Below the pieces are notes generated by a model. It was not told where the DNA came from and made no database searches. It was given only the letters and a program-made list of their open reading frames with translations. Shown piece after piece: positions 905 through 64,000 of a DNA stretch of 64,000 nucleotides. The position numbers were made by a program, and so were the translations under genes. The first letter of the stretch is position 1; each line of letters opens with the position of its first letter. Source of the stretch: Chiloscyllium plagiosum (Eukaryota); NCBI RefSeq assembly GCF_004010195.1, contig NC_057718.1, positions 100,420,965-100,484,964 on the forward strand. Direction: 5' to 3'.

Positions 905-1081
905 TGAAAGTGAGGACTGCAGATGCTGGAGATCAGAGTGGTGCTGGAAAAGCACAGCAGTTCAGGCAGCATCCAAGGGACTGGAAAATCAACATTACAG
1001 GCAAAAGCCCTTCATCAGGATTTTCCTGCTCCTCGGATGCTGCCTGACCTGCTGTGCTTTTCCAGCACTACTCTAATCTAG
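905..1081. mobile_element. Short fold-back PLE-terminus element (family A) with hammerhead motif
   Basis: gaaagtgaggactgcagatgctgg...cttcatcagga followed by the inverted arm; TSD atagtgagcc(t/c)ggg at 891-904 and 1082-1095. Confidence 0.8.
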
Positions 1082-1239
1082 ATAGTGAGCCCGGGGCCAA
1101 TCCAGGACACGGTCTGGGTTTCAGAGACTGGTAAGGTTCTGAATTCTGCTGGGCACACATGTTTGGAAGGCTGGCACTGTGTTACAAGTGGCAACCTCAT
1201 ACTTCCGTTTATCAGCATCAGTCTCTGAGGTCTCAGTAA

Positions 1240-1512
1240 GTAGTCTTTTTCCAGGGTAGGGCTGTCCAGAACTCGAGAACGTAGGTTTAGGGTGAGAGGG
1301 GAAAGATTTAAAAGATTCCTAAGGGGCAACTTTTTCACGCAGAGGGTGATGCGTGTCTGGAATGAGCTGCCAGAGGAAGTGGTGGAGGCTGGTATAATTA
1401 CAACATTTAAAAGGTATCTGGATGGATATAAAATAGAAAGGGATATGGTCCAAGTGCTGGAAAATGGAACTAGATTGGGTTAGGATATCTGGTCGGCATG
1501 GACGAGTTGGAC
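1240..1512 (+). mobile_element. CR1/HER1 LINE 3' fragment
   Basis: Encodes RGNFFTQRVMRVWNELPEEVVEAG, the CR1 ORF2 C-terminus. Confidence 0.9.
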
Positions 1513-6224: not shown

Positions 6225-6330
6225 AAATAGAACACCAGTGCTTCACCGGACACTCGCTGGTGATGGTACCTAGCGTGGTGACGAAACGTCTGAAAACATA
6301 CCTTTCAGCTCAGTGAGCAAACTTAGAACC
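6225..6330 (+). mobile_element. PLE 3' terminus (family C) with decayed hammerhead motif
   Basis: ctggtga-tggtacc-tagcgt-ggtgac-gaaacgtc at 6257-6290, then a cagctcagtgagcaaac tail shared with 12790-13050 and 62465-62540. Confidence 0.65.
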
Positions 6331-6689
6331 TGAGCTTCAAGAATTTCAGATGAGTTTTTAACCCCTACCCCAATTACATTACCAGCTTTCCCTCATTACT
6401 TTTGGAATTTTAGTCATGTTTCCAAAGGTGCTTCCATTTTGAGCTCCTTCCTGCCTGACTGGTGCCCTGCTCTCCCAGCTCTGGGCCCTCTGAGTCCCCC
6501 TCACTTAGGAACCCACCCACTGTCCTTAATTAGACACTGACGCAGTCAGGAAGGCAGTCACTTCCCAGAAGGTCACATGCCAGAGAGTCCCAGACAGCTC
6601 CTTGTAGTTTTGGGATCACGAAATGCCTGAGTAGAATCCACCAGCGGAAAATGGGAATGGGAATCGGGAAGTAAACTCTCTGCTGGTTG

Positions 6690-9320: not shown

Positions 9321-9599
9321 CCGTGAACTACTCAATGCTTCAGGATATTTTGAGTTTGTGAAAGTTTCTTTATAAATACAAATTATTTTGACCAAAAGGT
9401 CGTTCACTCCCAGCTGTTCACACCCATTGTATTTTATTTCTGTATGTTACGTTGAAATTGTGTGGAAATCTGTAATGCAGTAGCTGAGGTAACATTTTCA
9501 TCCTCCCTGAATGCGCTTTCACTTTTCACCCCGAAACACTTTCTCTTTGTCCTTTGCTGCTCTTATGTGCGGATGCAGCAAGAAGTTAGAAAGGGAGTC

Positions 9600-11597
9600 C
9601 AGGTTGTTCTGCTATAACGCAACAGTTGTATTCCTCTGTAACCTCGCGCTGTAGAAAATAGCACAGGAGAATATTGATCTGTAGAAAATCGCACAGGAGA
9701 TAATCGAACTGTGGAAAATCGCACAGGAGGAAATTGTGCTGTGGAAAATCGTGCAGGAGAAAATCGCACTATGGAAAATCGCGCAGGAGGAAATCGCACT
9801 GTGGAAAATCGCGCAGGAGGAAATTGCACTGTGGAAAATTGCGCAGGAGGAAATCGTGCTGTGGAAAATCGTGCAGGAGGAAATCACACTGTGGAAAATC
9901 GCGCAGGAGGAAATTGTGCTGTGGAAAATCGTGCAGGAGGAAATCGCACTGTGGAAAATCGTGCAGGAGGAAATCACACTGTGGAAAATCGCGCAGGAGG
10001 AAATTGTGCTGTGGAAAATTGCGCAGGAGGAAATCGCACTGTGGAAAATCGTGCAGGAGGAAATTGCACTGTGGAAAATCATGCCGAAGGAAATCGTGCT
10101 GTGGAAAATCGTGCAGCTGGAAATCGTGCTGTGGAAAATCGCACTGTGGAAAATCGCACTGTGGAAAATCGTGCAGCAGGAAATCGTGCAGGAGGAAATC
10201 ATGCTGTTGAAAATCGCGCAGGAGGAAATCGTGTTGTGGAAAATCGTACAGGAGGAGATTGCACTGTGGAAAATTGCGCAGGAGGAAATCGTGCAGGAGG
10301 AAGTCGTGCTGTGGAAAATCGCGCAGGAGGAATTCGCATTGTGGAAAATCGAAAATCGCGCAGAATGAAATCGTGCAGGAGGAAATCACGCAGGAGGAAA
10401 TTGCACTGTGGAAAATCATGCAGGTGGAAATCGTGCTGTGGAAAATTGCGCAGGAGGAAATCGTGCTGTTGAAAATTGCACAGGAGGAAATCGCGCAAAA
10501 GGAAATCGTGCTGTAAAAATCGCGCTGGAGGAAATCATGCTGTGGAAAATTGTGCAGGAGGAAATCGTGCTGGAGGAAATCGCACTGTGGAAAATTGCTC
10601 AGGAGGAAATTGCATTTTGGAAAATCGCGCCGGAGGAAATCATGCAGTACGAAATTTTGTTGGAGAAAATTGCGCAGGAGAAAATCATGCTGTAGAAATC
10701 GCGCAGGAGAAAAACGTGCTGTAGGAAATTGCACTGTGGGAAATCGCGCAGGAGAAAATCACACAGTGGAAAATTGCACAGTAGGAAGTCGCGCAGGAGG
10801 AAATGGCGCTGTGGAAAATCCCGCAGGAGAAAATGGCGTTGTGGAAAATCCTGCAGGAGAAAATGGCGTTGTGGAAAATCCTGCAGGAGAAATCGCGCTG
10901 TGAAAAATGGCGCAGGAGAAAATTGCACTGGAGGAAATTGACCTGAATAAAATTGCGCTGGGGAGAATTTGCGCTGGGGAGAATTTGCGCTGGGGGGAGT
11001 TTGCACTGGGGAGAATTTGCACTGGGGAGAATTTGCGCTGGAGGAATTTGTGCTGGGGGGAATTTGCGCAGGGGAAAATCACGCTGCAGGGAATTGTGCA
11101 GGAGGAAATGGTGCTGTACACAATTGAGCAGGAGGAATCTGCGCAGGAAGAAATTGCACAGGGGGATATTACACTGTGGGATATTGGGCAGGTGAAAATT
11201 GCACAGGAGGAAATTTGCAATGGAGGAAATTGCGCTGCAGAAAATCGCACAGGGGAAAATCATGCAGTAGGAAATGGCACAGTGGAAAATCACGCAGTAG
11301 AAAATCATGCAGTAGTAAATCAGGTAGGAGGAAATCGCACCGTACAAAATCATGCAGGTGAAAATCGAGCTGTACAAAATAGTGCAGGAGAAAATTGCAC
11401 TGTAGGAAACTGCGCAGGAGGAAATCGTGCTGTGGAAAATTGCGCAAGAGGAAATTGCGCAGGAGGAAATCGTGCTGTGGAAAATTGCTCCACCCAATCA
11501 GGAGAAAGTTCATGTTATCCAAACAATATCCGCAATTCGACAATTGTGTTATAGCCAATTCGCGCTGACAAAACACGCGTTATACAAGAACAACCTG
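9600..11597. mobile_element. Tc1/mariner-pogo-type MITE hosting an expanded satellite
   Basis: TIRs caggttgttctgctataacgc (9600-9620) and gcgttatacaagaacaacctg (11577-11597), followed by TA; homologous to the 214-bp copy at 35332-35545. Confidence 0.85.
9645..11490. repeat. 15/30-bp satellite, consensus GTGGAAAATCGCGCAGGAGGAAATCGCACT
   Basis: Directly visible array; 30-mers built from two 15-mers; 16-bp G-rich variant near 10955-11070. Confidence 0.97.
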
Positions 11598-11640
11598 TAC
11601 AAATGTTGTTTAGTTGCAAGGGGGTAAGGAAGATAAGACT

Positions 11641-11782
11641 AGGAGAATGTGAGGACTGCAGATGCCGGAGATCCGAGTCAAAGAGTGCGATGCTGGAAAA
11701 GCACAGCAGGTCAGGCAACATCCGAGGAGCAGGAGAGTTGATGTTCTGGGCATAAGCCCTTCATCAGGAAGAGTTCCTGATC
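11641..11782 (-). mobile_element. Short PLE-terminus element (family A)
   Basis: gagaatgtgaggactgcagatgc...gggcataagcccttcatcagg. Confidence 0.75.
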
Positions 11783-12099: not shown

Positions 12100-13050
12100 G
12101 ATCGCATAGGTGCTTCATTCACTTGTTTGAAGGTTTTGTTAATGAAGGTGAAGTGGGAGGTGAGGCACAGGTCCACTAGCTTTAGGATGTTGTCTTTGCT
12201 GATAAAGTTGGTGCTGTCCGATGTTTGTGGTCCTGGTTTTCCTAGTAGTGATGCTAGTGTTTCTTTGGCCAGGTCGATGTTATTTGATGTGAAAAGGGCT
12301 GAAACATCCTAGGAGACCATTATTTCATCCTCTTCTATCTTGGTGTCTTTGATGATGTTCAGGAATTCTTGGGTGGAGTGAATGGGGTGGCGTGAAACTT
12401 CAATTAGGTGTTTTAGTTTTTGGCGGAGTTCTTGGGGACACATATCCCAGGACAGGTGAAACAAAGACACGCACCAGTTTTTTTTTAGATTTCTTACAGC
12501 CTTCAGCCCAACAAGTCCACACCGACCCGCTGAAGCGCAACCCACCCAGACCCATTCCCCGATATTTACCCCTTCACCTAACACTATGGGCAATTTAGCA
12601 TGGCCAATTCACCTAACCTGCACATTTTCGGATTGTGGGAGGAAACCGGAGCACCCGGAGGAAACCCACGCAGACACGAGGAGAGTGTGCAAACTCCACA
12701 CAGAGAGTCGCCTGAGGCGGGAATTGAACCCGGGTCTCTGGCGCTGTGAGGCAGCAGTGCGAACCACTCTACCACCGTGCCGCCCAAAGGCATGGCATTC
12801 TAACCAGAACTCCATCAATAAACACATCGATTTCGACCCTATCTATCTTCCCTGGAAAAAAGTAACTGGAAATGACATCACCCACCTTAAGAAACCAAGA
12901 CCTTTAAATAGAGAGACGGGACATGCCACCAGTGTTTCACCAGAGGCTCACTACCTAGTGGTGAGACTAGGTTTCATCACCATGTTACCTAGTCATGGTG
13001 ATGAAACATCTGAAATCAAATCTTCCAGCTCAGCGAGCTAACTTACATTC
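12100..13050. mobile_element. PLE fragment with 5' inversion: RT piece on -, 3' end on +
   Basis: Minus strand HPIHSTQEFLNIIKDTKIEEDEIMVS is PLE RT-like; plus strand AWHSNQNSINKHIDFDPIY leads into a family C tail. Confidence 0.75.
12486..12785 (-). mobile_element. HE1 (V-SINE superfamily) tRNA-derived SINE
   Basis: Reverse complement gggcggcacggtgg...gggttcaattccc (A/B boxes) plus V domain gtgggtttcctccgggtgctccggtttcctccc. Confidence 0.9.
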
Positions 13051-13204
13051 TTGTTATTCAAAGTAATTTATGGGCTGGATACAGATATTATCAGCACCTC
13101 AGAATGAAAGTTTCAGCAGTAGCTTCCAGTGTGTTTTTCTTGGATCTATTTATCTCCCAGTGACCTGTTGCAGAGTATGTACATTGCAAGCTATTCAGAT
13201 CAAT

Positions 13205-13530
13205 GTAAAATACTGCAGTTGCTAGAGATCTGAAAAAAACCCAGAAATTGCTGGAGAAACTCAACAGGTCTGGCAGCATCTGCGGAGCGAGGAACAGAGT
13301 TAGTGTTTGAGTCCAGTGACCCTTCTGCTGAGCTCGTCAAGATGACACCCTGATTTTAAAAAATCAGTACATAAACCATTTAGTCAGAGTTTCTCAGAGG
13401 GCAGCAACATGTGGTGTCCATCATGGCGTAGTTGGATAAAGAAGGGTCACACCGGTCCAGACACGTTAACTCTGTTCTTCTCCTTCTACAGACCGTTGCC
13501 AGACCTGCTGAGTTTCTCTAGCGTTTACAA
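13205..13530. mobile_element. Fold-back PLE-terminus element (family D)
   Basis: ctggagaaactcaacaggtctggcagcatc, and its inverse ccagacctgctgagtttctc; gaagggtcac...acgttaac is an HHR remnant. Confidence 0.65.
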
Positions 13531-13649
13531 TTTTTATTACATTAAGAGCTGTGTTGTTGATGATGTGATGATCTCCTAGAGTGAGATTACAGAGTGGAGT
13601 GGGTTGAGGATCTCATGGTTACCATTAATATATTATTGTGGGTGAATAT

Positions 13650-13822
13650 CGAAAAGTGTGGCACTGAAAAAGCACAGCAGGTCAGGCAGCATCCAAGGAC
13701 CAGGAGAGTCAACGTCTCAGGCATAAACCCTTCATCAAAGGTCTGAAAGGTTGACTCTCCTGCTCCTCGGATGCTACCTGACCTGCTGTGCTTTTCCAGC
13801 ATCTGCAGTCCTCACCTTTTCC
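13650..13822. mobile_element. Fold-back PLE-terminus element (family A)
   Basis: Inverted arms aaagcacagcaggtcaggcagcatcc and ggatgctacctgacctgctgtgctttt. Confidence 0.75.
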
Positions 13823-14530
13823 TGTTTTGGGTAAGTCACAAGTTACCTTTAATTTGGCAACTTATTAAGTAATCTCACACAGAGTCAAGTAAGTTAAACT
13901 TCATTGCATGTAGCAACCAAAATAAGAGCCCTCAAGTTAGCAACTTCAATAAAGCAACTCAACCTGGCTATTATCCAATTAATGGTGGAATCTGGGCATG
14001 ATTCCAGCCAACAGTGTGTGTCCCTGGAAATGACCAGTGTTCAATCCTTGTGCAATGTTGTTTTTCAAAGTTCTGCTGTTAAATTGTTCTGGTATTGGAT
14101 TCTTATACAATTTTCTCTCTTTCAAGTTTGTGATGTGATGCTACTGTTATTTCAAGATTCTTTTACCCCCAACATGGATGTCGTTTCTGGAGATCTTAAA
14201 TTTGTAGCTCGCTTTGTTCTCAGAAGGAGCTCCCCTTTTCCTGGTTACATTCTGGGTCAGCTGTCTGTTCAGCTTTTCCTGTAATAAACCACTTTACTTC
14301 AGGATGTTCCTTCTGCAAGCAGTCTTCAGCAGGTTATCAAGCAGTGTTACCTCCTGTCTCCCAGGAAACAGGTGCTCCTTCCCACAGGTGATTAGCTGGC
14401 GTGTTATTTATAATTCCTTCCCAGCAGTTTCTCGTTGCTTCTTTCATCTCGAGAAATAGCATTGTTGCTGATTCTCTCAGTCCATGAAGTTACTAAAGTT
14501 GCAGAGTTTACGTTGTCACTGTTCAGAGCA

Positions 14531-14831: not shown

Positions 14832-15724
14832 TCTAATGAAAATAAGCAATTACTTTGAAAAGTCCTTTGACACATCTCCTTGGTGGAGCACTGTACCTTA
14901 AACATCCTCATAGCGAGTGCTTCCGAAACTGTTAGCCACTGTGGCCCCATTTCTGTGCTTTGTGACTGAATTCTGGCCCCTCGGTGAGGTCTGTGTATGC
15001 GGGGGACTGGGGTAGAGAGTGGATGTGTGAGGAGTATAGGGTGCAAGATAGAGCCCATAGAGAGTGCGGGAGGTACCAGGGACAGTGGGTACTGTAACTG
15101 TAGACGGTACATCTGCTTTTGAACTCAGCCAGAGCTCGGCAGTGGCCAATAGCTGCCTCCGAACTTGGTCTTCCAAGATTTTAACTTGGGCCCCCCCCCC
15201 AGCCCCCCATTGGGAGGACCCTTGCTCTAAGCCACCGCATGAAGATGACTGGGATGTGATGTCCAAGAGTTTAATGTCTTCCTTCGTCTGAAGTCTAGGA
15301 GGTAGCTATGTGTGCAATGGGTGCCAAGAAAGAAAGGGAAATAGTGGTAAACAGAAATTATAGCATGTGTAATGAAATAATTTGGGTTAAATAGTTCTCA
15401 TATTTTGTGGAGAAGGCATTACATCACATCCTAATTACGGGACCTTGTTCTTTTTCTTTGAACGTTTTCTTCAAACAGACTTAACAAAAGTATAAACCCA
15501 CATTTATGCAACAGTTCTATAATTAAATCTCCCTCTGCTCACAGCTGGATTAGAAGCCATCCGCACAGAAATATGCAACACCATTGAGGCCATCTCTTCT
15601 TTCTAATTAAATTTACCCAATTCTTCATTTGGTTAATGTGTAATCTCTAGAAAGAAATGTCTGATTTGCTGCAGCATCTTTCATGCTGTCAGGAACTACA
15701 CAGCCCACAAAGTGCTTTTGAGGT

Positions 15725-17322
15725 GTAGTCACTGTAGTTAGTGTAGTCACTGGAGTCACTGTAGTTACTGTAGTTACTGGAGTCATTGTAGTTACTGAAG
15801 TCACTGTTACTAGAGTCACTGTAGTTACTAGAGTTACTGTAGTTACTGGGGTCACTAGCTACTGGAATCATTGTAGTTACTGTAGCTACTGGAGTCACTA
15901 GTCACTGGAATCACTGTTGTTACTGGAGTCACTAGTCACTAGAGTCACTGAAGTTACTATAGTTACTGGAGTTATTGTAGTTATTGTAATTTCTATAGTT
16001 ACTGGGGTCACTGTAGTTACTGGAGTCACTGAAGTTACTACAGTTACTGGAGTCACTGGAGTTACTGTAGCTACTGGAATCATTGTAGTTACTGTGGTTG
16101 TCATGTTACTGGAGTCACTGTTGTTACTGTAGCTACTGGAGTCACTAGTCACTGGAGTCACAAGTTACTTTCCTGAAGAAAGGCTTATGCCCGAAACGTC
16201 GATTCTCCTGTTCCCTGGATGCTGCCTGACCTGCTGCACTTTTCCAGCAACACATTTTCAGCTCGGAGTCACAAGTTACTATAGTTACTGGAGTCACTGT
16301 TGTTACTGTAGTTACTGGAGTCATTGTAGTTATTGTAATTTCTATAGTTAATGGAGTCGCTGCAGCTACTACTGTAGTTAATGGAGTCACTAGTCATTGG
16401 AGTCACTGTAGTTACTATAGTTACTGGAGTCACTGTTGTTACTGTAGTTACTGGAGTCATTGTAGTTATTGTAATTTCTATAGTTAATGGAGTCGCTGCA
16501 GCTACTACTGTAGTTAATGGAGTCACTAGTCATTGGAGTCACTGTAGTTACTATAGTTACTGGAGTCACTGTTGTTACTGTAGTTACTGGAGTCATTGTA
16601 GTTATTGTAATTTCTATAGTTAATGGAGTCGCTGCAGCTACTACTGTAGTTAATGGAGTCACTAGTCATTGGAGTCACTGTAGTTACTATAGTTACTGGA
16701 GTCACTGTTGTTACTGTAGTTACTGGAGTCATTGTAGTTATTGTAATTTCTATAGTTAATGGAGTCGCTGCAGCTACTACTGTAGTTAATGGAGTCACTA
16801 GTCATTGGAGTCACTGTAGTTACTATAGTTACTGGAGTCACTGTTACTGTAGTTACTGGAGTCACTGGAGTCACTGTAGTTACTGGAGTCACTAGTCACT
16901 GGAGTCACTGAAGTTACTATAGTTACTGGAGTCATTGTAGTTATTGTAATTTCTATAGTTACTGGGGTCACTGTAGTTACTGGAGTCACTGGAGTTACTG
17001 TAGCTACTGGAATCATTGTAGTTATTGTGGTTGTCATTGTTACTGGAGTCACTGTTGTCACTGTAGCTACTGGAGTCACTAGTCACTGGAGTCACAAGTT
17101 ACTATAGTTACTGGAGTTGCTGTTGTTGCTATAGCTACTGGAGTCACTGAAGTTACTGGAGTCACTGTAGTTACTATAGTTGCTGGAGTCACTGGAGTTA
17201 TTGTAGTTATTGTAATTTCTATAGTTACTGTAGTTACTATAGTTACTGGAGTCACTGTAGCTGCTAGAGTCACTGGAGTCACTAGTTACTGTAGTTTTTG
17301 GAGTTACTGTAGTTACTGGAGT
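15725..17322. repeat. 9-bp satellite (GTYACTGKA) with a 136-bp higher-order repeat
   Basis: gtcactgga/gttactgta units; four 136-bp copies start at 16275, 16411, 16547 and 16683. Confidence 0.97.
16170..16264 (+). mobile_element. 95-bp hammerhead-bearing PLE-terminus insertion (family A)
   Basis: ttcctgaagaaaggcttatgcccgaaacgtcga...; perfect 16-bp TSD ggagtcacaagttact at 16154-16169 and 16265-16280. Confidence 0.9.
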
Positions 17323-17594
17323 TCTTGGCAGCCAGTTTTGTGCGCAGTCAGCTCCAACAAGTGGCAGTGGGTTGGCGATCCGATCCTCAGTTTCAGTTGT
17401 GTTAGTTGAGGGATAAATAATGACCAGTACTCTGCAGAGACCTCCCCCATCTCCCTCCCCCACCGCCAGCCACCTCTTCCAGTGCTCACGTCAATTTGAG
17501 AGGGCTCATTTTAATGACTCATCTGAGAAACCCGGTACGTACAGCACTGCAGCACTCCCTGGCGACATTGTCTTGTTCTTTTTTTCTTAATTTA

Positions 17595-17943
17595 GGGTGG
17601 CACAGTGCCTCAGTGGTTAGCACTGCTGACTCACAGCACCAGGGACCTGGGTTCGATTCCAGCCTTGGGCAACTGTTTGTATGGAGTTTGCACATTCTCC
17701 CCGTGTCTGCGTGGGTTTCCTCCGGGTGCTCTGTTTCCCTCCAACGATGTCCAGGTTAGGGTGGACTGGCCATGGGAAATTGCCCATTAGTGTTCACAGA
17801 TGTGCAGGCTGGGTGGATTAGTCATGGGAAATGCAAGATTGCAAGGAAGAGATTGGAGGATGGGTCTGGGCAGAATGTTCTTTGGAGAGTCAGTGTGGAC
17901 TTGTTGGGCTGAATGGCCTATTTCCACGCTGTAGGGATTCTAT
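17595..17943 (+). mobile_element. HE1/V-SINE
   Basis: tRNA-like head, V domain and gtagggattctat tail. Confidence 0.9.
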
Positions 17944-18208
17944 AAAATCTGTTCTTTGGATTCTATCTTTATTGCCCTGAGAGCAGTTAAGGATCATTGC
18001 TGTGGGTCTGGAGTCTGATGTAGCCCAGACCAGATAAAGATAGGGCCAGTTTCTTCCCTCAAGAGCATTTGTAAACCAATTGTTTTTCTTCAATAACAAT
18101 TTACAGCAGACACCATTAGGCCAGATTTCAATCCCAGATTTCTGTTGAATTCAAGTTTCACCATCCACCATGGACCCCTAGAATATTAAGTGATGGGGTT
18201 TTGGATTA

Positions 18209-18828: not shown

Positions 18829-19023
18829 CAGGAGAAGGTGAGGGCTGCAGATGCTGGAGATCAGAGTCAAAGAGGGTGATGCTGGAAAAGCACAGCAGGT
18901 CAGGCAGCATCCGAGGAGCAGGAGAGTCGACGTTTCAAGCATTCCCCTTGAAGGGCTTATGCCCGAAACGTCGAATGCTGCCTGACCTGCTGTGCTTTTC
19001 CAGTACCATGCTTTTTCAACTCA
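18829..19023. mobile_element. Fold-back PLE-terminus element (family A)
   Basis: 12-bp TSD ataaaaccagct (18817-18828, 19024-19035); contains gggcttatgcccgaaacgtcga. Confidence 0.85.
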
Positions 19024-19805: not shown

Positions 19806-20140
19806 TCATAGAATCCCTACATTGTGGGAGCAAGCCATTCAGCCCGTTGAGTTCCACACTGACCTCTGAAGCGCATCCCACCCAGACCCACTCTCCTACC
19901 CTATCCCTGTAACCCTACATTTCCCTTGGCCAATCCACCCTAGCCTGCACATCCCTGGGCACTACGTGCAATTTAGCATAGCCAATCCACCCTAACTTGC
20001 AGGTTTTTGGACCGTGGGAGGAAACCCACACAGATACAGAGAGAATGTGCAAACTCCACACACATAGCTGCCTGAGGCTGGAATCGAACCTGGGTCCCTG
20101 GGATTGAGGCAGCAGTGCTAAGCACTGAGCTACCTCATCT
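19806..20140 (-). mobile_element. HE1/V-SINE
   Basis: Reverse-complement V domain and tRNA head. Confidence 0.85.
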
Positions 20141-44822: not shown

Positions 44823-46730
44823 CACCTAGGGGCCAGCGACCATAATTCTATTAGTTTTAACATAGTGATGGAATAAGATAGACCAGATCAAACTGTTGAA
44901 GTTCTAAATTGGAGGAAGGCTAATTTTGATAGTATTAGGCAAGAACTTTCAAAAGCTGATTGGGGACAGATATTCGCAGGTAAAGGGACGGCTGGGAAAT
45001 GGGAAGCCTTCAGAAATGAGATAACGAGAGTCCAGAGGCAGTATATTCCTGTCAGGGTGAAAGGAAAAGCTGGTAGGTGTAGGAAATGCTGGATGACTGG
45101 AGAAATTGAGGGTTTGGTTAAGAAAAAGAAGGAAACATATGTCAGGTATAGACAGGATAGATCGAGTGAATCCTTAGAAGAGTATAAAGGAAGTAGGAGT
45201 ATACTTAAGAGGGAAATCAGGAGGGAAAAACAGGGACATGAGATAGCTTTGGCAAATAGGGTTAAGGAGAATCCAAAGGGTTTTTACAAACACATTAAGG
45301 ACAAAAGGGTAACTAGGGAGAGAATAGGTCCCCTCATAGATCAGCAAGGCAGCCTTTGTGTGGAGCCGCAGGAGATGGGGCAGATACTAAATGAGTATTT
45401 TGCATCAGTATTTACTGTGGAAAAGGACATGGAAGATATAGAATGTGGAGAAATGGATGGTGACACCTTGAAAAATGTCCAGATTACAGAGGAGGAAGTG
45501 CTGGCTGTCTTGAAATGCATAAAAGTGGATAAATCCCCAGGACCTGATCAGGTGTGCGCTAGAATTCTGTGGGAAGCTAGGAAATTGATTGCTGGGCCCC
45601 TTGCTGAGATATTTGTATCATCGATAGTCACAGGTGAGGTGCCAGAAGACTGGAGGTTGGCAAACGTGGTGCCACTGTTTAAGAAGGGCGGTAAAGACAA
45701 GCCAGGGAACTATACACCGGTGAGCCTGACCTCAGTGGTGAGCAAGTTGTTGGAGGGAATCCTGAGGGACAGGGTGTACATGTATTTGGAAAGGCAAGGA
45801 CTGATTAGGGATAGTCAACATGGCTTTGTGCATGGGAAATCATGTCTTACAAACTTGAATGAATTTTTTGAAGAAGTAACAAAGAGGTTTGATGAGGGCA
45901 GAGTGGTGGACGTGATCTATATGGACTTCAGTAAGGCATTCAACAAGGTTCCCCATGAGAGACTGGTTAGCAAGGTTAGATGTCATAGAATACAGGGAGA
46001 ACTAGCTATTTGGATACAGAACTGGCTCAAAGGTAGAAGACAGAGGGTGGTGTTGGAGGGTTGCTTTTCAGACTGGAGGCCTGTGACCAGTGGAGTGCCA
46101 CAAGGATCGGTGCTGGGTCCACTATGTTTTCTTATTTATATAAATTATTTGGATATGAACATAGGAGGTATAGTTAGTATGTTTGCAGATGACACCAAAA
46201 TTCGAAGTGTAGTGGACAGTGAAGAAGGTTACCTCAGAGTACAACGGGATCTTGACCAGATGGGCCAATGGGCTAAGAAGTGGCCGATGGAGTTTAATTT
46301 AGAAAAATGCGAGGGTATGAGCTAGAAAGAGAGGCTAGAAAAGCTCAAGTTATTTTCTCTGGAGTGCTGGAGGCTGAAGGGAGACGATAGAAGTCTATAA
46401 AATTATGAGATGCAGCGATAGGGTTAACAGTCAGAATCTTTTTCCAAAGGTGAAATGTCTAAAAACAGGGGGCATGCATTTAAGGTGAGAGGGGGAAAGT
46501 TCAAAGGAGATGTGAGGGGCATGTTTTTTTACAACAAAGAGTGGTAGGAGTGTGGAACGTGCTGCCGACAGGGCATGGGGGGTGTTTAAGGGGCTTTTAC
46601 ATAAGAATAAGCAAGTAATGGAGGGATATGGACAGGCAGAAGGGGTTAGTTTAATTTGGTCTCATCTTTGCTACAACATTGTGGGCCGGAAGGTCTGTTT
46701 CTGTACTGTGCTATCCTGTTCTATGTTCTC
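44823..46730 (+). mobile_element. Truncated CR1/HER1 LINE ORF2 (RT domain) joined to a CR1 tail
   Basis: ORF 45057-46325 contains KSPGPD, PLFKKG, QHGF, DFSKAF, GVPQGSVLGP and FADD; SDHN endonuclease end upstream; the sequence jumps to the tail near 46314. Confidence 0.95.
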
Positions 46731-46859: not shown

Positions 46860-47360
46860 GACATGCTCAAGAATACCAAAGGAAGGGGGAAACAGTACTT
46901 CATACCATCTGAGGAGAGAATTTTGAAGGGTTCTCTGATTGGTATGTTTGCCATGACAGTAACTGAACGAGTTAGGTAATGATTGACTGTTAACTGCCAA
47001 GCTTTCTGTCTGCGAAGATCAGAGCCCTGTGTATTAATATCTGGAGCTTCCAGCATGCACAAACACACACACACACACATACGCACAAACACACACACAC
47101 ACAAAACTGACAATCGTAAATTGGTTGTTAGCAAATTTTTAGCATCCTCTGGGTGGTTTAGCAAATGCTGTCCAATTGTGGAATGATGTGGAGGTGCAGG
47201 TGTTGGACTGGTGTAGGCAGGGTGAGAAGTCACACGACACCAGTTTATTTGAAGTCGCAAGCTTTCGGAGCACAGCTGCTTCGTCAGATGAGTTGTGCAA
47301 TCACATCTAATGATACCTTGATGAGTTCAAGATGAAAGATTCCAACAAAATGCGTCCTTT
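46860..47360 (-). mobile_element. Decayed PLE 3' end containing a family B insert (about 47185-47292)
   Basis: Minus strand IGQHLLNHP...LEA..INTQG; the insert carries ctgacga-agcagc-tgt-gctcc-gaaagc. Confidence 0.65.
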
Positions 47361-49133: not shown

Positions 49134-49268
49134 GGAGAAAGTGAGGTCTGCAGATGCTGGAGATCAAAGTTGAAACTTTATTGCTGGAACAGCACAGCAG
49201 GTCAGGCAACATCCAGGGAACAGGACATTCGACGTTTCGGGCACAGGCCCTTCTTCAGGAATGATTAG
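49134..49268 (-). mobile_element. Short family A PLE-terminus insertion
   Basis: 13-bp TSD tctttgaaagtaa at 49121-49133 and 49284-49296. Confidence 0.85.
49226..49263 (-). ncRNA. Minimal type I hammerhead ribozyme motif (intact core, 5-bp stem I)
   Basis: Minus strand CAUUC-CUGAAGA-A-GGGC-CUGU-GCCC-GAAAC-GUC|GAAUG. Confidence 0.8.
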
Positions 49269-49373: not shown

Positions 49374-49500
49374 GACTTCACCTGATGGAGGACCAGCGCT
49401 CTGAAAGCTTGTGATTTCAAATAAAGCCGTTGGACTATAACCCGGTTGATCTGACTTCTGACCTTGTCCACCCTAGTCCAACACTGGCACCTCTACATCA
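49374..49500 (+). mobile_element. Family B PLE terminus with decayed HHR
   Basis: cacctgatggaggaccagcgctctgaaagcttgtg...tagtccaacactggcacctctacatca. Confidence 0.75.
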
Positions 49501-51788
49501 ATGTTGTTGTTTGAAATTCTCAAAGTTGATCAGATGCGAAAGGGGAAGCGATGGCCTAGTGGTAATATTGCTGGACTGTTAATCCGGAGATCCAGGCAAT
49601 GTTCTGTCGTTTCAGGTTCGAATCCCAACACGGCAGATTGATTTGAATTCAACATAAAAAAAACTCTGGAATTAAGAGTCTAATGATAACCACAAATCCA
49701 ATTGATGGGGAAAAAAAACATCTGGTTCATGAATGTCCTTTAAGGAAGGAAATCTCTATCCTCGCCTACATGTGACTCTAGACCCATAGCACTGACCCTT
49801 AACTGCCCTCTGGGCAATTAGGGATGGGAAATAAATGCTGACCCAGCCAATTATGCCCTCACATCATGAATGAAATTTTAAAAAAAATTGCTTGCTGGGT
49901 GTTCACTATCGACTTTGGAATTGTAAATAAGAGGGCAGTCAGGGACTCAGGTAGCACTATCCCTGAAGATGGTACCTCTATCAGTGCAGCACTCCCTCAG
50001 AACTGCAATGAAAAAGTCAGTCTAGATTTTTGTGTTTACATCTCTGGTGTGGGTCCTGAACTCTTAGACTTCAAGATGACAGTTATACCAACTGAGCTCC
50101 AAATATCTGTTTTAACTGAGAGACAAAATACGAGGGTAGGAAACTGGGCTTAATGCTGGACATGCATATGGACATCAGTGAATTGTGGGATGCTAGTTTA
50201 CGTTATTTTATTTTAGATTAGGAATAATCCTCGGCACTGATCTTAGTGACAACTGTCCCTCTTTATAGTGCACTGTTAATGTGCTGTGTACTCTCAGTTA
50301 AGAGCTTGGTCAACCTGTCTAACTTAGACTCGTTCAATTAACAAACATTATGTCACAATATACAGAAAAAGCAAATACTGCACAGAAAATCAACCAACAT
50401 TATTTAAAAAGAGATGTCATGTGCGATTGAAGCTTTCCAGTTTTGTCTTGTGCAACATTATATTGGACATCCAGTAGTAAATGCTTCATAATTCTTAATT
50501 AAAAAGCTGCCTCCATAGCTTAGCAAGCACTTGGAGATTTAGATTTATATTATATTTAGCTGAGTTAAAGAATTAATAGGATTTAAATGATAAACAGTTG
50601 CTTCCACTCAATACAGTGGCCAGCCAAGCGATGCAGATGGTGCTGTAAGAGATCCAATTGAATGCATGGCTGCATTTGATTAAGCTCATTCAAGAAGTGG
50701 CCTTTGCAGATCGAGCCCAGTCTACTGCTAGCTCGCTATCGTTTCAAGAATTCTGCTATTTTATCCATCTGAGCGAACTGAAGTAAAACAAATAAGCTCA
50801 CTGATGGCCAAATGCTCAAAGATAACGCCTGGGAACTGTTTGTGAATTGTCCCCAATTAGACCATCTTGTGGTAGCATTGTGCAACATGACTCCATATTG
50901 CTTATATTTAGGGAGACCTTTGTGCTTCCAAAGAGCGACCCTAGTTGTGACAACCTCTTCAAATAAGAAAAAAGCACCTGTCCTCAAGGGCAGTGGTACT
51001 TAAACTAAGATCTACCGATCCCTATAGTCTATGGAGAGTTTCCAGCGCATCTGTGGAAGGACATGAGAGTGATGATGTGACAAGCGTGATAGTAACTGGG
51101 AGTGGAGAATGAACATTGGGACTGTTGTGGGAATCAGGCACCACCACCCCCATCTCACTGACTTCTGTAAGTACTTGTTGTTGGGGTTTCAATTCAGCAA
51201 AATTGACCGCAATTAATCTGATAAATACGATGAATGCAGCCAGGCTGGGGTACACCAGGTAGAGCAGGAATACAGGATTGTGACTTTAGTAGGGACCTGT
51301 CCTGACCAGATAGGGTGGCTCACACATGTGGACGACTTTTTATATTTTCTCTTTTCTCCTTAGTCATCTTACGATCGCCATAAACAACCCTAGAGGGGTC
51401 AGCCCAAGCCAAAACAGGTTTGTCTCCACTGCCTATCACAACTGGACCCCATCCAAGCCCTGCCCTTTATGACCCTTTCTGAGGGATTTTTGAGGAATGT
51501 GGGATTTCTTGAATGACAAGACCTCAACCTCCTCCAGGTGTTCCCCGTCAATGCAAAGTGCCCAATAGTACATTGAGCTCTTCGTTCAAACCGATAAAGG
51601 CCCACCTTTACTGTATCCCTATAGCACAGGAGGAATTATTTCCTTGTCTCAGCCTATGCTGTCTCCCTAATAGGTTTCAAGATTCACCAGGGATCCATCC
51701 ACGTTCAGACAACCTCTTTTTGAAATGGTCTTTTAGGATCGGGAATGACTTGCTTCCACTCTCCATTCCAATGAGCTCTGTAATGGTT

Positions 51789-52055
51789 CATAGAATCATA
51801 GAAATACCTACAGTGTGGGAGCAGGCTATTGAGTCCACACTGAAGAACATTCCACCCAATTCCTATGACACTGCATTTCCCTTGACTATCCCACCTAGCC
51901 TGCACACTATGGAATAATTTAGTTGGCCAATCCACCCTAACCTGCACATCTTTGGACTATGGGAGGAAACCAGAGCACCCCGAGGAAACCCACGCAGACA
52001 CGGGGAGAATGTACAAACTCCACACAGAGAGTCACCTGAAGGTGGAATTGAACAG
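51789..52055 (-). mobile_element. HE1/V-SINE
   Basis: Reverse-complement V domain. Confidence 0.85.
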
Positions 52056-52165
52056 GGTTTACGTTGAAGAATCTGGTGTGCATTCTGCAGACTCGGCCAT
52101 ATGTAGAGGGGTGGGTGGTGCTTGAAGGGCTGGGAAGTGAACTGTTCAGAGGTTAAGATCAACTA

Positions 52166-52382
52166 GGAGAGAGTGTGGACTCCAGATGCTGGATACCAGA
52201 GTTGACAGTGTTGTGCTGAAAAAGCGCAGCAGGTCAGGCTGCATCCGAGGAGCAGAGAATCGACGTTTCCGGGATAAGCCCTTCATCTGGAAAATTGGTC
52301 TTGTGCCCAAAATGTCGATTCTTCTGCTTCTCGAATGCTGCCTGACCTGCTGCGCTTTTCCAGCACAAAACTGTCAACTCTG
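52166..52382. mobile_element. Fold-back family A element
   Basis: Inverted arms around cccttcatctgg. Confidence 0.75.
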
Positions 52383-52804
52383 GAGGTTAAAGCACACTCT
52401 CCCTATAAGTTCCTGAAAAACTCCCTCGATATGTTCAATGCCTTCCCAAATGTAGCTTCTCCATTTTGGTCAGTTAGAGGCTGGGGACTCCCACATTTGA
52501 CCCCTTCAGGGATGCTTTGAGGATGTTTCTGATATTCACTTTGAGAGGTGAAGCAAAGAAAATGAGAGAACAGCCAATGCTGGAAATCAGAAACAAAGCA
52601 GGAATTGATGGAGAAACTCAGTAGTTTTGGCAGCATCTGTGGAGGGAACTCAGAGTTCATGTTTCAGGTCCAGAGACCCTTCTTCAAAACCCCTGAAGTT
52701 CTGATACATGGCAAAGAATTTCTGCACAACATCATAATCCTTAGTTAGGAAGAGGATGGAGATCAAGTTTAATATAAATTTCATCTGCAAAGAGCTGCAA
52801 GAAT

Positions 52805-53300: not shown

Positions 53301-53315
53301 TGAAAGATAGTCTTA

Positions 53316-53612
53316 TGGTGGCTCAGTGGTTGGTACTGCTGCCTCACAGAGCCAGGGACCTGGGTTCAATTTAAGCTTCGGGTGACTATTTGTATATAGT
53401 TTGCACATTCTCCCTGTGTCTGCATGGGTTTCCATCCCACAGTCCAAAGATGTGCAAGTTTGGTTGGATTGGCCATGGGAAATTGCTCCATGATGTCTAG
53501 GGTTGTGCAGGCTAGGTGGGTTAGCCGTAGGGGTTGGGTGCGTCTGGATGGGTGCTGTCCGGGGGATTGGTGTAGCCTAATGGGCCGAATGGCTTGCTTC
53601 CACACTGTAGGG
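53316..53612 (+). mobile_element. HE1/V-SINE
   Basis: tRNA head and partial V domain. Confidence 0.8.
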
Positions 53613-54257
53613 GAGGCTATGATGGTGACCATGACAACTATTGTCCATTTAAGAAAGGAAACTGCCATCCTTGACTGGGTAACATGTGATTCCAGAACAA
53701 CAGCAATGTGGTTGAATCTTAATTACCCCTAAAATGGGCAATTAGGGACAGTCAACAATGCTGACCTTTCCAGTGGTACACATATCCCATAAAAGAGGAA
53801 AGGAAAGGAAGACTGCCAGGGATTTTAGGGATGCTGTGGTTGGAGAGCTGGATTGTAATGCAGAGTGATGTGAATGCCGCAGGTTCAATTCCCGTGCCAG
53901 CTGATGTTGACATGGACGTCTCGACTTCTCAACCTCATCCCTCACCTGCAGTGTGGTGACCCTCAGGTTAAATTCACCACCTGGTCACTTTTCTCGAGTG
54001 AAAGAGTGATACAGTGGCGACTTTAGCTTTTCTTTAAGAACGGAGACCAGTCCAGTGACAGGATTGACAAAGGAATCTCTAGCAGTCATTGCAAGTCTCC
54101 TCCTCAATCACTGCCTCCTGGTTACCCAGTTAGAACCCTCCAGAGTTGTAGAGCGGTTCCTAACCATCACAGTAACAGACACGAGCCTTTGATGTGACCC
54201 AGTCAATATCCCCATTGTTCTTCTTAGTCCGCTTCTAATTGGAACTACAGCTGATCC

Positions 54258-54480
54258 TGAAGTGTGGTGCTGGAAAAGCATAGCAGGTCAGGCAGCATCC
54301 GAGGAGCAGGAGAGTCAATGTTTCGAGCATAAGCTCTTCATCAGGCGTTTCTGATGAAGCGCTTTATGCCTGAAAGGTCGACTGTCCTGCTCCTTGGATG
54401 CTGCTTGACCGGCTGTGTATTTCCAGCACCACACTTTTTGACTCTAATCTCCAGCATCTGCATTCCTCACTTTCTCCATC
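54258..54480. mobile_element. Fold-back family A element with two back-to-back HHR motifs
   Basis: tttcgagcataagctcttcatcagg-cgttt-ctgatgaagcgctttatgcctgaaag. Confidence 0.8.
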
Positions 54481-55848: not shown

Positions 55849-56168
55849 AATGATTAGAATCCCTACAGTGTGGGAACAGGCCCTTCAGCCCAACAAGTCC
55901 GCACCGACCCTCCAAAGAGCAACCCGCCCAGATCCATTCTCCTACATTCACCCCTGACTAATGCACCTCACACTACGGGCAATTTAGCACAGCCAATTCA
56001 CCTGACCTGCACGTCTTTGGATTGCGGGAGGAAACCGGAGCACCCGGAGGAAACCCACGCAGACACGGGGAGAATGTGCAACTCCACACAGACAGTTGCC
56101 CGAGGGGGGAATCGAACCCAGGTCTCTATGAGGCAACAGTGCTAGCCACTGGGCCACCGTGCCACCCC
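55849..56168 (-). mobile_element. HE1/V-SINE
   Basis: Reverse-complement V domain and tRNA head. Confidence 0.9.
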
Positions 56169-58356: not shown

Positions 58357-58703
58357 GGGGGTGGCACAGTGGCTTAGTGTTTAACACTGCTGCCTCACAG
58401 CACCAGGGACTCTGGTTCAATTCTAGCCTCAGGCAGCTGTCTGTGTGAGGTTTGCACATTCTCCCTGGGTCTGTGTGGGTTTCATCCGGGTGCTCCGGTT
58501 TCATCCCACAGTCCAAAGATGTGCAGGTTAGGGAGAATTGGCCAAAGCTAAATTGCTTCGTAGTGCTCAGGGGTGTGTAGGCTAGATGGGTTAGCTATGG
58601 GGAAATGCATGGTTACAGGGATTGGGTGAGTCTGAGTGGGATGCTCTTCAAAGGATCAGTGTGGACTCAATGGGTCTGCTTCCACACTGTAGGGATTCTA
58701 TGA
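58357..58703 (+). mobile_element. HE1/V-SINE
   Basis: tRNA head, V domain and gtagggattctat tail. Confidence 0.9.
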
Positions 58704-58958
58704 ATGGAAGTGTCACCCTGTGATAAAAGCACTGAAGATAATCCCTATGCCAACTAAAAGTGACCTTTTCCAGCCACATTTGCTGAGTAGATTGGCAATG
58801 TTAATGAAGCTGAGAGTAGTTTATTGAAGGCAATTAAGTGAGAAATGATGATGAACCCTCCTGACTGAGTCGATGGATTGTCTCTTGGTTTTGGAGATGA
58901 TGGCCAGTTCCCTAAATAGAGACAAAATAACTGCAGATGCTGGAATCCAAGGTAAACA

Positions 58959-59507: not shown

Positions 59508-61042
59508 AACAAGCAGGAGGCTGGGAGAACACAGCAAGCCATGGCAGCATCAGGAGGTGGAGAGGTCAACATTTTGGGTGTAACTGTTCATCAGGATAGA
59601 CCTGCCATCATCTTTTTTGGGGACAGTATTTATTACTGTGTAAGGAATTGTGTAAACAGCAAAGATAACAATTAAAATTCTGTGGTCATTGATAGATTGG
59701 GCTTGGAGTGCAGGGTGAACATGACCCCTGAGTGACCCACTGAGAGGTTTAGGCCATTCATTCTCTCAACTCTCTTTCACCATTTTAACAACACCATGGC
59801 TGCTGTTTGACCTTGATGTCTCTTTACTGGCAGGTCCCTCTTGATTCCTGCAGTGTTCAATTTTAACTCCGTCAAAACTTCAATCATTTAGAGATAAAAT
59901 TGGACCCCCCAGTGCAATCAGTCTCGGCCTTGGATATGCTCAAGGGCTGAGTGACCACTGCTCCCTGTGTTGGAGACTTTGAGGGATCCATAACCCTCTC
60001 AGTCAAGTAACTTGTTTTCATCTCAATCTGAAATGGCTGCCGCCTTTCCCTGAGATTATACCTGCAGTTCTATACTCTCCAGCAGGGGCATCGTCCTCTC
60101 AGCAGACTACTCTACTCTGGCAAGCTTTCTCAGAATTCCAATGTTTTGTCACAGCGATAAGAAGAATGCCCATGATTCCTGTACCTTCAAAGGTAGAACG
60201 TCTGAAAAAGTGTGTACCAGATATAGGGGGATGGAAGAGCAGCTCTCACTGGCATTACAGTGAAAGGCTTATGCCCGAAATGTTGACTGTACTGCTCCTT
60301 GGATGCTGACTGACCTGCTGTGCTTTTCCACTGCGACACACTTCGACAATGAAAGGTATAGCCCTACCAGACCACAGGGTTGCTCTCATACAAGAGTGGA
60401 CTTATTGGACCGTAGGGTCTATTTCTGTGCTGTGTGACTCGATGGTGGTTTAACCTGAGGGTCACCACACCTCAAAAGAGTCCTTGATAATAACTATCTC
60501 AGCCAGTGCAGGAATTGAACCAACACTGTTGGCATCAAACTGTATTATAAACCAGCTGTCCAGCCAACTGAGCTGACCGGTACGTGGGGCTGCCATGATA
60601 GATGCTGGAAACACTTAGAACGTAAGGGCTTTGTGACCCTGACTTTCTTAATAGTTATTGAGCGACAGTGTTAGCAGCAAGTTCAGATAATTCTGCGACA
60701 GGCAGTTGAAATAGCAATGGATAGAAAACTGTTCAATTATGCAAATAAAAAATAAAATGAAAAATTGGAAATGAAAACTGTTGTGCAATTGGAATCCTGG
60801 CAATGCAGTTAGTGAAATCTTTGTTGTGATAAATTAAACAGCAAATACAACGTTTTACCCAACAACTAAGATGTTTTATATTTTTATTAACACAAGAAAA
60901 ATCGTCAAGAAAGTAAAAGAGCGTGAATTTGATCACATGATCTTCATGATATCTTGGAGCTGCACGTCACTAAGCATAAATAACACCGTGTGTGGGTGGA
61001 ACTACACTAAGCTGCACCACCCCTGGCTAAATGCATTTTAGA

Positions 61043-62121
61043 ATGATGTGGAGGAGCCGGTGTTGGACTGGGGTGGACAAAGTTAAAAATCACACAACAC
61101 CAGATTATAGTCCAACAGGTTTATTCGAAAGCACTAGATTTCGGAGTGCTGTTCCTTCATCAGGTGGTTGTGGAGTATAAGATCGTAAGACACAGAATTT
61201 ATAGCGTGATGTAACTGAAATTATATGTTGAAAAAGACCTGGATTGTTTGATTCTAATCTAAAAAAGGGATTTACAGAATCATACATGGATTCATGCAGT
61301 TTTTGAAAGAAACAAAATGTAATTCTGCAAATACAAATTCACCACAAAAACTTATATGGGTGTGTGTGTGCGTGCACGCGTGCGCTGGGGTGGGGTGTGG
61401 GGGTGAGGCAGGGTGTGCGTGTATGTGTGTGAGTGTAAAGGGGTATGTGTCTGCAAGAGGGTGCGGCCGCAATTCATGAGCAAAGTACAATGTAACCCTG
61501 CAGGTAAAAAATCCCCCCACATGCAGGAGAGTGTGTGTTTGTGTGTGTGTGTAGTGCAGTGGGGTCACCTGTAGTGTGACATGTACCCAAGGTCCCGGTT
61601 GAGGCTATCCCATGGGTACCGAACTTGGCTGTCAGCCTCTGCTCAGCCACTTTTCGTTGTTGCTTATCCCACAATCCGCCTTGGAGGATGGTCACCCGAA
61701 GGTCCGAGGTCGAATGTCCTGGACCGCTGAAGTGTTCTCCGACTGGGAGGGAACACTCCTGTCTGTTAATTGTTGTGCGGTGTCCATTCATCTGTTGCCG
61801 TAGCCTCTGCTCGGTTTCACAATGTACCTCGCCTCAGGGCATCCTTGCCTGCAGCGTATGAGGTAGACAACGTTGGCCAAGTCACATGTGTACCTGCCAC
61901 ATACATGGTGAGTGGTGTCCCCATGTGTAATGTTGGTACCCATGTCGACACTCTGACATGTCTTGCATGTCTACCATGACAGGGTTGTACGGTGCTGTCC
62001 TGAAAGCTGGGCAGTTTGCTGCGAACAATGATCTGTTTAAGGTTTGGTGGTTGTTTAAAGGTGAGAAGTGGAGGCGTGGGGAAGGTCTTCACGAGGTGCT
62101 CATCCTTGTTGATAATGTGTT
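61043..62121 (-). mobile_element. Penelope-like element 3' part (family B) with GIY-YIG remnant and HHR motif
   Basis: Encodes FKQPPNLKQIIVRSKL and MNGHR...PVGEHFSGPGH...AEQRL; HHR-like cac-ctgatga-aggaac-agc-actcc-gaaatcta-gtg at 61132-61166; 13-bp TSD aatgcatt(t/c)taga at 61030-61042 and 62122-62134. Confidence 0.9.
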
Positions 62122-64000
62122 AATGCATTCTAGACTGACAGAGTGTATGTGCACGTAGTCCTGAATGAGTAAAGGAAGTAGATTAGTCCTTAACACAACT
62201 TTAAGATCAGAGCCAGGTATATCTAGGGTTACCATATAGATAGCAAGGTTTAATATTAAAATGTAATAAAGGGTTTATTTTGATCTCTAAGCTTTAAGAT
62301 AGTTCTTAATCTTGTTTTCTCCTGGACCAGCTGTCTCAAACATAATGTTTTATCAAATCACACAATTAGCGAGTTTTGAGTCATCACCACAGGAAATGAA
62401 ATCGCCAACCCAAAGAAACCCAAACATGTAAATAGGAAGCAGGAATTTTCAGCATTGCTTCGCCTGAGGCCCACTGAGGATGTTACCTAGTCTGGAAATG
62501 AACTTTCCTGCTCAGCGAGCAAACCTACATCCAAATCACACAATAAATGATGGTGGCAGTGATGGGATTCACTGCCTGGAGGATTATGGCCGCAGTGATG
62601 AGCAAGAAACAGATCTGGATCAGCTGGAAAAGAATTCCAAAAGCCATTTATTCCTGAGACCATTGCTACAGCTTTAAGAATGCTAAGCAACCAGAATAGC
62701 CATCACCAGGACACTATAAGTCTCAAAAAGCATTTTCAGGTCAGTAATAAGAGAAACAAGCCATTATAAAGCAAAGAGAGCAGCAAAAGCCCATTGCAGC
62801 GAAGGGGAGAATTCTGATGAGCACTCTCAAAAAGAGGATAATTACAGACAGCCAAGACAGATTTGATCCCTTCTGGGAAAGGACAAAACATCTTTTGGTT
62901 CCACCTGAAACCTTAGGCCGAAGACCATGCTGGAACTTCTAACTATGAGTTAAGAAATTTATGGATTATTTACTTGACAGCAACAGCGATTTAAGGTAGT
63001 TCTTCAGGTACAGGCTTAGAGAAAATCAATTGGAAAAGAAAATTTGGGAATAAGAACCATATTGCAACTTGAAAGATCAGAGCTCTGACAGTAAAGCTAG
63101 TGAAATCTTTATTTTGATGGTTTAAACGTCAAATTCAAAGTTCCATTCAACAACTGAGGAGTTTTATTGATTTCATTCATTAAAATACAAATGGTTGAAT
63201 GAAGAAAAAGGAGAATCTGATCACATGGTGTCAAATTTGGTGAAAATACCTTGGACACAGAAACAAATTGGCTCAATCATGATAGACATCTTTGATATGG
63301 TCAAAAAGGATCATCTTAACTCATTGACTGAGGCCATTTTGAGAGAGATTCTACCCATGGAATCTTGGGACATCATTCGGCCATCTTGGAAATGGAATAT
63401 CTTCATTCATCGCCATATTTGTGAAGGAAAACCAAACTTTCCATTGAAAGCCACACTTAAAACAGCTAAATAATGTAAACAACGTTCAGTTTTACAACAA
63501 AGACTCAGTAACAACTCTAACCAACTCAGAATGAATGCCACAAAACAGCACCTTATCCTGTCAACATTTCCACTGAAATTATCGACAGTGGGAGTCTGGC
63601 CTCTGTAATGCCTGATACAAGTTTGGGATTGATTATGGAGGGACTGTGGAGGGACTCCAGGCTCCCGCCCAACCACCAAAACAGTTCCTCCATATGGTGA
63701 TCCTGGAAAACCACTTTCATTAAGTCCAGGCTGCGTGCCAATGCTAATGTTTATCCGTTTGGATGGGATGTGCTGCCTTCCAGCACCAGATACAATCTTC
63801 TTGGTGCAAGCCCAGAGAGTGTGTGCTGTCTTTCCAATGTTAGATGGAGTGACGATAAGATGGAAAGTCTGCTTTCAGGTGGTTCCAGTTGGCCCCCATC
63901 ACCCAGTCAAATCATGGACTTGGTATTTTTTTTTAAATAACTGATTGTTCTGCTTTTGCTCTTTCTCAGATGTGCATTGGTTTCATGCCATGTACAGTAT

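Follow-up and report, generated by a model that had tools for sequence, protein, structure and literature searches.

Penelope-like elements (PLEs) of metazoans hold minimal hammerhead ribozymes in their terminal repeats (Cervera and De la Pena 2014, PMC4209133), and their insertions have been described as carrying inverted pseudo-long terminal repeats (pLTRs), an optional tail of 30–40 bp at one end, target-site duplications (TSDs) of 8–10 bp and captured DNA (PMC3846280, PMC8557442). In the Anolis Poseidon element PAc, reverse transcription begins at two internal start sites, which delimit the tail (Frangieh et al. 2024, PMC11167929). The non-LTR retrozymes of animals consist of tandem units, typically of 150–450 bp, with canonical ribozymes and circular RNAs (PMC7229834; bioRxiv 10.64898/2026.07.22.740005). 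Here, we analysed a stretch of 64,000 nucleotides from Chiloscyllium plagiosum (contig NC_057718.1, positions 100,420,965 to 100,484,964; hereafter, the window), which contains end pieces of 90–230 bases from at least five PLE families, each with a hammerhead-ribozyme motif. These terminal stubs are real, very abundant and of a described kind; the novel detail is the stop position of the copies, as more than a third of those sampled from family A, the commonest, begin a few bases ahead of the ribozyme core and not at its cut site. Our literature search, which left out most subscription papers and Repbase, found no published account of shark PLE stubs or of a 5′ stop before the hammerhead. We conclude that the short pieces are probably the terminal repeats of autonomous PLE families, made by the parental reverse transcriptase (RT) starting internally and running off the RNA 5′ end four bases before the core.

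Five families of terminal stubs

The families are told apart by stem II and the downstream body: stem II is GGGC/GCCC in A, GGAG/CTCC in B and GGGT/ACCC in C, while D has an A-like body and E a 6-bp stem II. A preliminary description of the window had counted about four families, one fewer than we found; its observation that stem II is family-specific was borne out. The 24 motif positions that it listed all fall in copies of the five families, and 15 of them (39356 included) keep both core boxes, whereas the other nine (near 1000 and at 6257, 11745, 13715, 18948, 19223, 49382, 52262 and 60263) have cores altered by substitution, deletion or truncation. A descriptor of CTGAnGA, stem II and GAAA matched 15 sites in the window, 14 of them inside family copies; 100 trinucleotide shuffles yielded 0.78 matches on average and never more than 3.

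In total, the window holds 30 insertions in 64 kb. Coordinate-based sampling of 15 contigs outside the window gave 831,642 unmasked bases with 238 insertions (about one per 3.5 kb), in agreement with the density of roughly one per 3 kb given previously, and short arms occupied 20,378 of these bases. Extrapolation of the sampled density gives an estimated genome total of about one million insertions, and the 3.56-Gb genome contains 45,650 exact copies of a single family A 30-mer. Many copies had been described as folded back on themselves; 10 of the 30 window insertions and 71 of the 238 sampled ones are head to head.

TSDs of 9–16 bp had been attributed to most copies, which our calls do not sustain. 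A strict caller (duplication of at least 9 nt) found them in 6 of the 30 window insertions and in 51 of the 174 short sampled insertions (lengths 9–19; shuffled control mean 4.1), the latter divided into 35 of 71 pairs and 16 of 103 solos. A looser caller raised the window figure to 12 of 30, with a control of 6.5%. The target duplications are real, though called in a minority of short insertions. Inverted repeats are known to trouble assemblers (PMC8557442), and an assembly artefact or a chance motif might in principle be suspected; the shuffle control, the TSDs, and the reappearance of both the boundaries and a fold-back joint in other runs, among raw reads and contigs, refute this explanation.

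Hammerhead anatomy

Judged from their sequences, the predicted ribozymes of all families follow the minimal type I plan of PLEs, with an unpaired base before stem II, a G-C closing pair, a palindrome, a UH site and a short helix I; the palindromic stem III of the preliminary description is thus part of a plan kept across families. The stem II closing pair, for which the descriptor demands pairing, is G-C or the G-T left by CpG decay in 232 of 234 A/D, 25 of 26 B and 12 of 12 E matches. The helix III palindrome is ACGT in 174 of the 234 A/D and 8 of the 12 E matches and AGCT in 20 of the 26 B matches; CpG decay has left it intact in 1 of 11 copies of family C, and in the window the 4-nt palindrome is kept in 6 of the 14 family-copy matches. 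Helix I forms 3 or 4 of its 4 pairs in 184 of 234 A/D matches, covaries within family E (GCA/TGC, CCA/TGG and TCA/TGA), and covaries between families as well. The conserved plan, together with this covariation, points to selection on master elements.

The copies themselves look like neutral debris of an element type already described. Single copies decay at CpG sites, that of the palindrome included, and family A mismatches number 29 of 788 in the core against 364 of 5,629 in the body (167 of 811 at CpG sites), a weak comparison in which subfamily mixing and alignment bias both favour the core. Co-folding of four window copies was uninformative, as the dimer fold was not the minimum-energy structure. 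The Rfam hammerhead models gave no match in the window at E values up to 5, and just microRNA (miRNA)-like hairpins appeared below threshold.

Coding parents of the stubs

A PLE origin had been suggested for these elements, and it is confirmed by long copies in which GIY-YIG coding sequence is joined to a hammerhead. In the window, positions 42703–43640 contain a GIY-YIG domain (Pfam E value 9e-5) and a C-x4-C-x2-C linker joined to a 3′ untranslated region (UTR) and hammerhead A, and this GIY-YIG frame has many relatives in the genome at 82–92% identity. The elements, previously called non-coding, are therefore mostly but not exclusively stubs. At a further locus (L074), hammerhead A and its tail continue into an N-terminal reading frame, a continuity that identifies the family A stub as the terminal repeat. 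Long copies of B, C and E likewise have GIY-YIG-like motifs upstream of the hammerhead, with Pfam E values of 0.012 (below the cut-off) for B and E and no match for the 48-aa piece of C; for family D, no coding parent was found. The features of PLE membership, namely a terminal repeat overlapping the start of the open reading frame (ORF), an optional tail, tandem and inverted forms, and TSDs, were all observed. As a separate observation, a family B copy has inserted into a family A parent, in the 5′ part of its coding sequence (L081:6600 region).

The linker that precedes the GIY-YIG domain is defined in PMC8557442 as CX2-5CxxC. By its linker and C-terminal GIY-YIG domain, the family A parent appears to be an endonuclease-positive, Neptune-like PLE, so that the Neptune-type parentage proposed earlier stands for this family. 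It does not extend to family E, whose parent looks different from the Neptune-like one; its endonuclease motifs are of a kind that we take to be Penelope/Poseidon-like.

The preliminary description had further proposed that the termini may have spread as non-autonomous, retrozyme-like elements mobilised by Neptune-type PLEs, a reading under which the stubs would be independent units with their own transcription, self-cleaved or circularised, and mobilised in trans. Their very high copy number, a start site inside the unit that would allow stub transcription, and the missing parent of family D would suit such elements, yet the sequence types of family A speak otherwise. Among 216 copies, in a sample biased towards short ones, the mean number of differences was 4.0 between short copies and 3.7 between short and long copies, so that the short ones were no closer to each other than to the long. 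Identical bodies were common to short and long copies (20 short and 2 long in one case, 7 and 2 in another), some of them over 78 nt, and the common types were found both short and long, except for one small residual class that was short only (8/8). One type comprised 56 short and 6 long copies in this biased sample; this type and the residual class are what the retrozyme-like reading could claim. No short-only lineage with diagnostic changes of its own was present among the common named A types of these 216 copies. Furthermore, family A has 56 + 62 = 118 head-to-tail junctions genome-wide against about 9,973 head-to-head sites, in patterns that cover only part of its subfamilies, and pairs vary individually in their arms and centres. 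The parental coding link and the bodies shared by short and long copies indicate stubs of autonomous PLEs and no separate retrozyme lineage; we therefore regard independent elements as improbable. Two neighbouring head-to-tail junctions at G000:C30:1115356-1115530 are the sole hint of a three-unit family A array in one of the two junction counts.

Positions at which the copies end

Positions within copies were numbered from the first C of CTGA. The 3′ ends of family A are bimodal, lying near +88 and +126, and the tail is present on exactly one arm in 38 of 40 A pairs, 16 of 21 B pairs and 4 of 8 C pairs, which matches the two internal RT start sites and the known PLE tail of PMC11167929. Of 143 family A arms, 53 have their 5′ end at −6 to +1, 4 at −49 to −10, 29 beyond −50 and 46 at +2 to +60. 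Starts at −6 to +1 were also found in 17 of 83 B, 22 of 51 C and 6 of 9 D arms, whereas family E showed ordinary scattered truncation (0/20). The expectation of non-random 5′ ends thus held for family A and failed for family E.

The same boundary recurs in other contexts. Head-to-head junctions pile up there (26 of 40 longer arms), and loose ends and joints in reads and contigs from other organisms land at −3 to −5. Thirty loci contain the parental ORF start: 7 of them start at about 0 to −8, in 2 a long repeat continues seamlessly upstream, and most others are trimmed further in. Several of these loci are tandems with both units starting near −4 to −8, in which the unit ahead of one bounded near −4 breaks off anywhere in the ORF or UTR; template jumps land at the −4 boundary.

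Around the predicted cleavage site (+25 to +32) lie just 4 of the 143 arms, and cleavage-defined 5′ ends were rejected for the bulk of copies. Family A is rarely tandem and its ends avoid the cleavage site, which argues against membership among retrozymes, although a few units that start at +28 to +31 could be cited in favour. These were seen in L120 (both units), L097, L100, L101 and L113, at or just past the predicted site, and they are possible traces of self-cleaved templates. A hidden upstream parent shared by solos broken at −8 to +1 was also rejected, as no two A flanks were alike among 46 flanks (four C flanks were), and so was a splice acceptor at −4, where AG is absent and the skipped parts of RNA contigs end in TT or similar. 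Separately, family A parents have a pyrimidine tract ending in CAG or TAG at −17 to −25 that resembles a splice acceptor, and few copies break there.

The boundary might instead be a structural stop: an RT that copies a long RNA from its downstream repeat would stall at the base of helix I or of a hammerhead dimer. In families A, C and D, the boundary does fall on the helix I 5′ strand, and long copies with a continuous 3′ UTR exist, as the 29 arms beyond −50 illustrate. However, no pile-up is seen in family E, whose stem II is longer and whose helix I covaries, units with the ORF start begin near −4 as well, and a pause does not predict the extra G described below. We consider this explanation unlikely.

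Alternatively, the boundary could be cut by an endonuclease or set by microhomology, as ATT is the preferred site of the GIY-YIG enzyme (PMC11167929) and also the element's sequence at −4. In 7 of 9 solos that share their extra G with the target, the target continues with A, AT or ATT like the element start. Against this, a second ATT at +29 draws few ends (the 4 arms at +25 to +32), C and D have AGT at the boundary, and the head-to-head junctions, which involve no target, pile up too. This possibility accordingly receives little credence from us.

An extra G and an initiator-like motif at the boundary

The parental letter at −5 is C or T. Genome-wide, the letter preceding the −4 boundary is G in 4,261 and A in 2,228 cases, against a background G/A ratio of 0.6; the local counts are G 20 and A 5, and a hand count of head-to-tail junctions gave G 20 and A 9. 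An abutting TSD accompanies 12 of 14 solos preceded by G and 3 of 14 preceded by A. In 9 of the 12 G solos having a TSD, the target copy has the G as well, as expected if a C added opposite the cap pairs with the target end. In addition, the initiator-like motif YYANWYY with its A at −4 is present in 13 of 23 reference copies of families A, C and D (8/14, 4/7 and 1/2, respectively), compared with none of the 11 references of B and E (0/5 and 0/6), the latter family also lacking the pile-up; the background is 1.2% per position. These features suggest that the −4 boundary is likely to mark the start of the element RNA.

Several observations weigh against this interpretation and the process that we derive from it. 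Target preference could supply the G, given the same 9 of 12 solos; the opposite arm provides the template for some of the G letters counted genome-wide; at breaks one base nearer the core (−3), G makes up 18 of the first 100 listed (hand count); and B and C have no G excess, at small numbers. The pile-ups of C and D are partly built in by references with little upstream sequence, and four family C copies share upstream sequence. The initiator references were hand-picked, and pyrimidine-rich tracts favour YYANWYY. The one informative raw RNA run, from a poly(A) single-cell library with both strands covered, had no peak of molecule starts or ends, and in the long parent loci examined the RT core was unreadable. 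Lastly, the start site reported for Drosophila Penelope lies well upstream of the hammerhead (PMC2377424, PMC4209133).

A model for the formation of the stubs

The copies display a shared parent, two 3′ end points, a 5′ pile-up and an extra G. In the process that we favour, the RT would begin within the RNA at one of two start sites, about 88 or 126 bases past the hammerhead core, and run off a presumably capped RNA 5′ end four bases before the core. Both nicked target strands may prime short complementary DNA (cDNA), one from each start site, and the two cDNAs might then join head to head into a hairpin with the tail on one arm only. A jump of the RT at the 5′ end to another RNA position would give a partial tandem or a long copy. 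The ribozyme would be carried along uncut, and the copies would subsequently decay neutrally. The breakpoint pattern thereby yields a model open to test, in which priming inside the RNA close to its 5′ end is followed by run-off at −4 and then by joining or a jump. The model bears on how PLEs replicate and on what their hammerhead does, and the ends of about a million insertions offer a sharp and cheap test of whether the boundary is a transcription start.

More tentatively, Neptune-type PLEs may replicate like a primitive long terminal repeat (LTR) element, with transcription starting 4 bases before the hammerhead, a 'strong-stop' cDNA of 90–130 bases, and a jump to the downstream repeat for full copies; the million or so insertions would then be mostly failed jumps, with the ribozyme uncut in most templates. 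If this more speculative proposal were true, failed jumps would locate both the start site and the jump to the exact base.

Inventory of the window

903–1081, family A head-to-head pair; left arm −2 to +128 with tail, right arm +28 to +91; 14-bp TSD
6233–6340, plus strand, family E copy starting at −25; substituted core
11641–11770, minus strand, family A solo, −3 to +128, with tail
12982–13048, plus strand, family E copy rearranged within the hammerhead
13235–13538, two family C arms head to head (13235–13334 minus, 13465–13538 plus), about 130 bp apart
13652–13830, family A head-to-head pair with decayed cores
16170–16262, plus strand, tail-less family A solo starting at −3, within a 9-bp minisatellite; TSD of about 16–18 bp
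18830–19016, family A head-to-head pair; 12-bp TSD
19223–19335, plus strand, family D solo; 13-bp TSD
21986–22110, plus strand, diverged family C-like copy with both core boxes
27239–27452, family A head-to-head pair; 13-bp TSD
28653–28746, minus strand, family C solo
33526–33855, two family B arms head to head with about 170 bp of unrelated DNA between them, all within a 13-bp TSD
37226–37441, family A head-to-head pair, each arm starting at −4; TSD of 14–15 bp
37648–37814, family D head-to-head pair, whose hairpin is the source of the sub-threshold Rfam miRNA matches
39279–39455, family C head-to-head pair
41868–41938, plus strand, family A copy with an internal deletion fusing core to tail
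42703–43640, minus strand, 5′-truncated autonomous-type PLE: linker, GIY-YIG frame (42906–43640), 3′ UTR and intact family A hammerhead (42792–42769), with the element end at +89
44656–44805, family A head-to-head pair amid pieces of a long interspersed nuclear element (LINE)
47175–47291, minus strand, family B solo with both core boxes and AGCT palindrome
49134–49264, minus strand, family A solo, −6 to +125; best-formed hammerhead of the window (5-bp helix I, ACGT palindrome, C17)
49379–49498, plus strand, family B solo, −3 to +118
52165–52385, family A head-to-head pair; 8-bp duplication
52595–52690, minus strand, family C solo starting at −3
54260–54477, family A head-to-head pair with exact cores in both arms
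59510–59595, minus strand, family D solo
60261–60343, plus strand, family A solo truncated within the core (+4); TSD of 10–11 bp
61035–61247, minus strand, family B copy keeping the parental 3′ UTR to at least −97
62382–62533, plus strand, family E copy starting at −89; duplication of about 14 bp

Between the family B arms at 33526–33855, host DNA was possibly captured by the PLE machinery, and the C arms at 13235–13538 may be alike. Long minisatellites with 15/30-bp and 9-bp units extend over 9528–11599 and 15724–17327, the second hosting a family A stub with its TSD. A LINE reverse-transcriptase remnant (Pfam RVT_1) at 44112–46566 has the family A hairpin among its pieces. Another repeat of about 300 bp, resembling a short interspersed nuclear element, has copies at 12498–12788, 17592–17947, 19802–20134, 21770–21963, 32086–32438, 51796–52053, 53315–53622, 55855–56168 and 58358–58704, and a tRNA-like head lies at 49545–49614.

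Comparison with known systems

The stubs resemble the non-LTR retrozymes described in PMC7229834 and bioRxiv 10.64898/2026.07.22.740005 in being non-coding, in their type I hammerhead, in their kinship to PLE repeats and in their presence in a chondrichthyan; they differ in being dispersed, solo or inverted, and in having minimal ribozymes. They share with the motifs of PMC4209133 the CUGAnGA box, one extra base, the G-C closing pair of stem II, GAAA, the 4-nt palindrome and the short helix I. That report ascribes its mostly single motifs to truncated PLEs and mentions opposite-strand pairs, as found here. Its counts are about 4,000 motifs in coelacanth and about 9,000 in Xenopus, compared with the 45,650 copies of a single exact 30-mer, and the portion of it available to us contains no breakpoint map, unlike the present analysis.

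Head-to-head inversion, a tail on one arm, partial tandems and host DNA between repeats are all shared with the PLEs of PMC3846280 and PMC8557442; unlike those, most insertions here are the last 90–130 bases alone. The independent trimming of the two arms would fit two primings better than antisense self-priming. With respect to PAc (PMC11167929), the clades differ, PAc being a Poseidon element and family A Neptune-like, and the passages of that study consulted here mention neither a fixed 5′ stop ahead of the core nor an added G. The two systems are otherwise alike in the hammerhead at the junction of repeat and ORF, the two internal RT start sites, the priming from both target strands and the uncut RNA template, the last three as proposed here for the shark elements.

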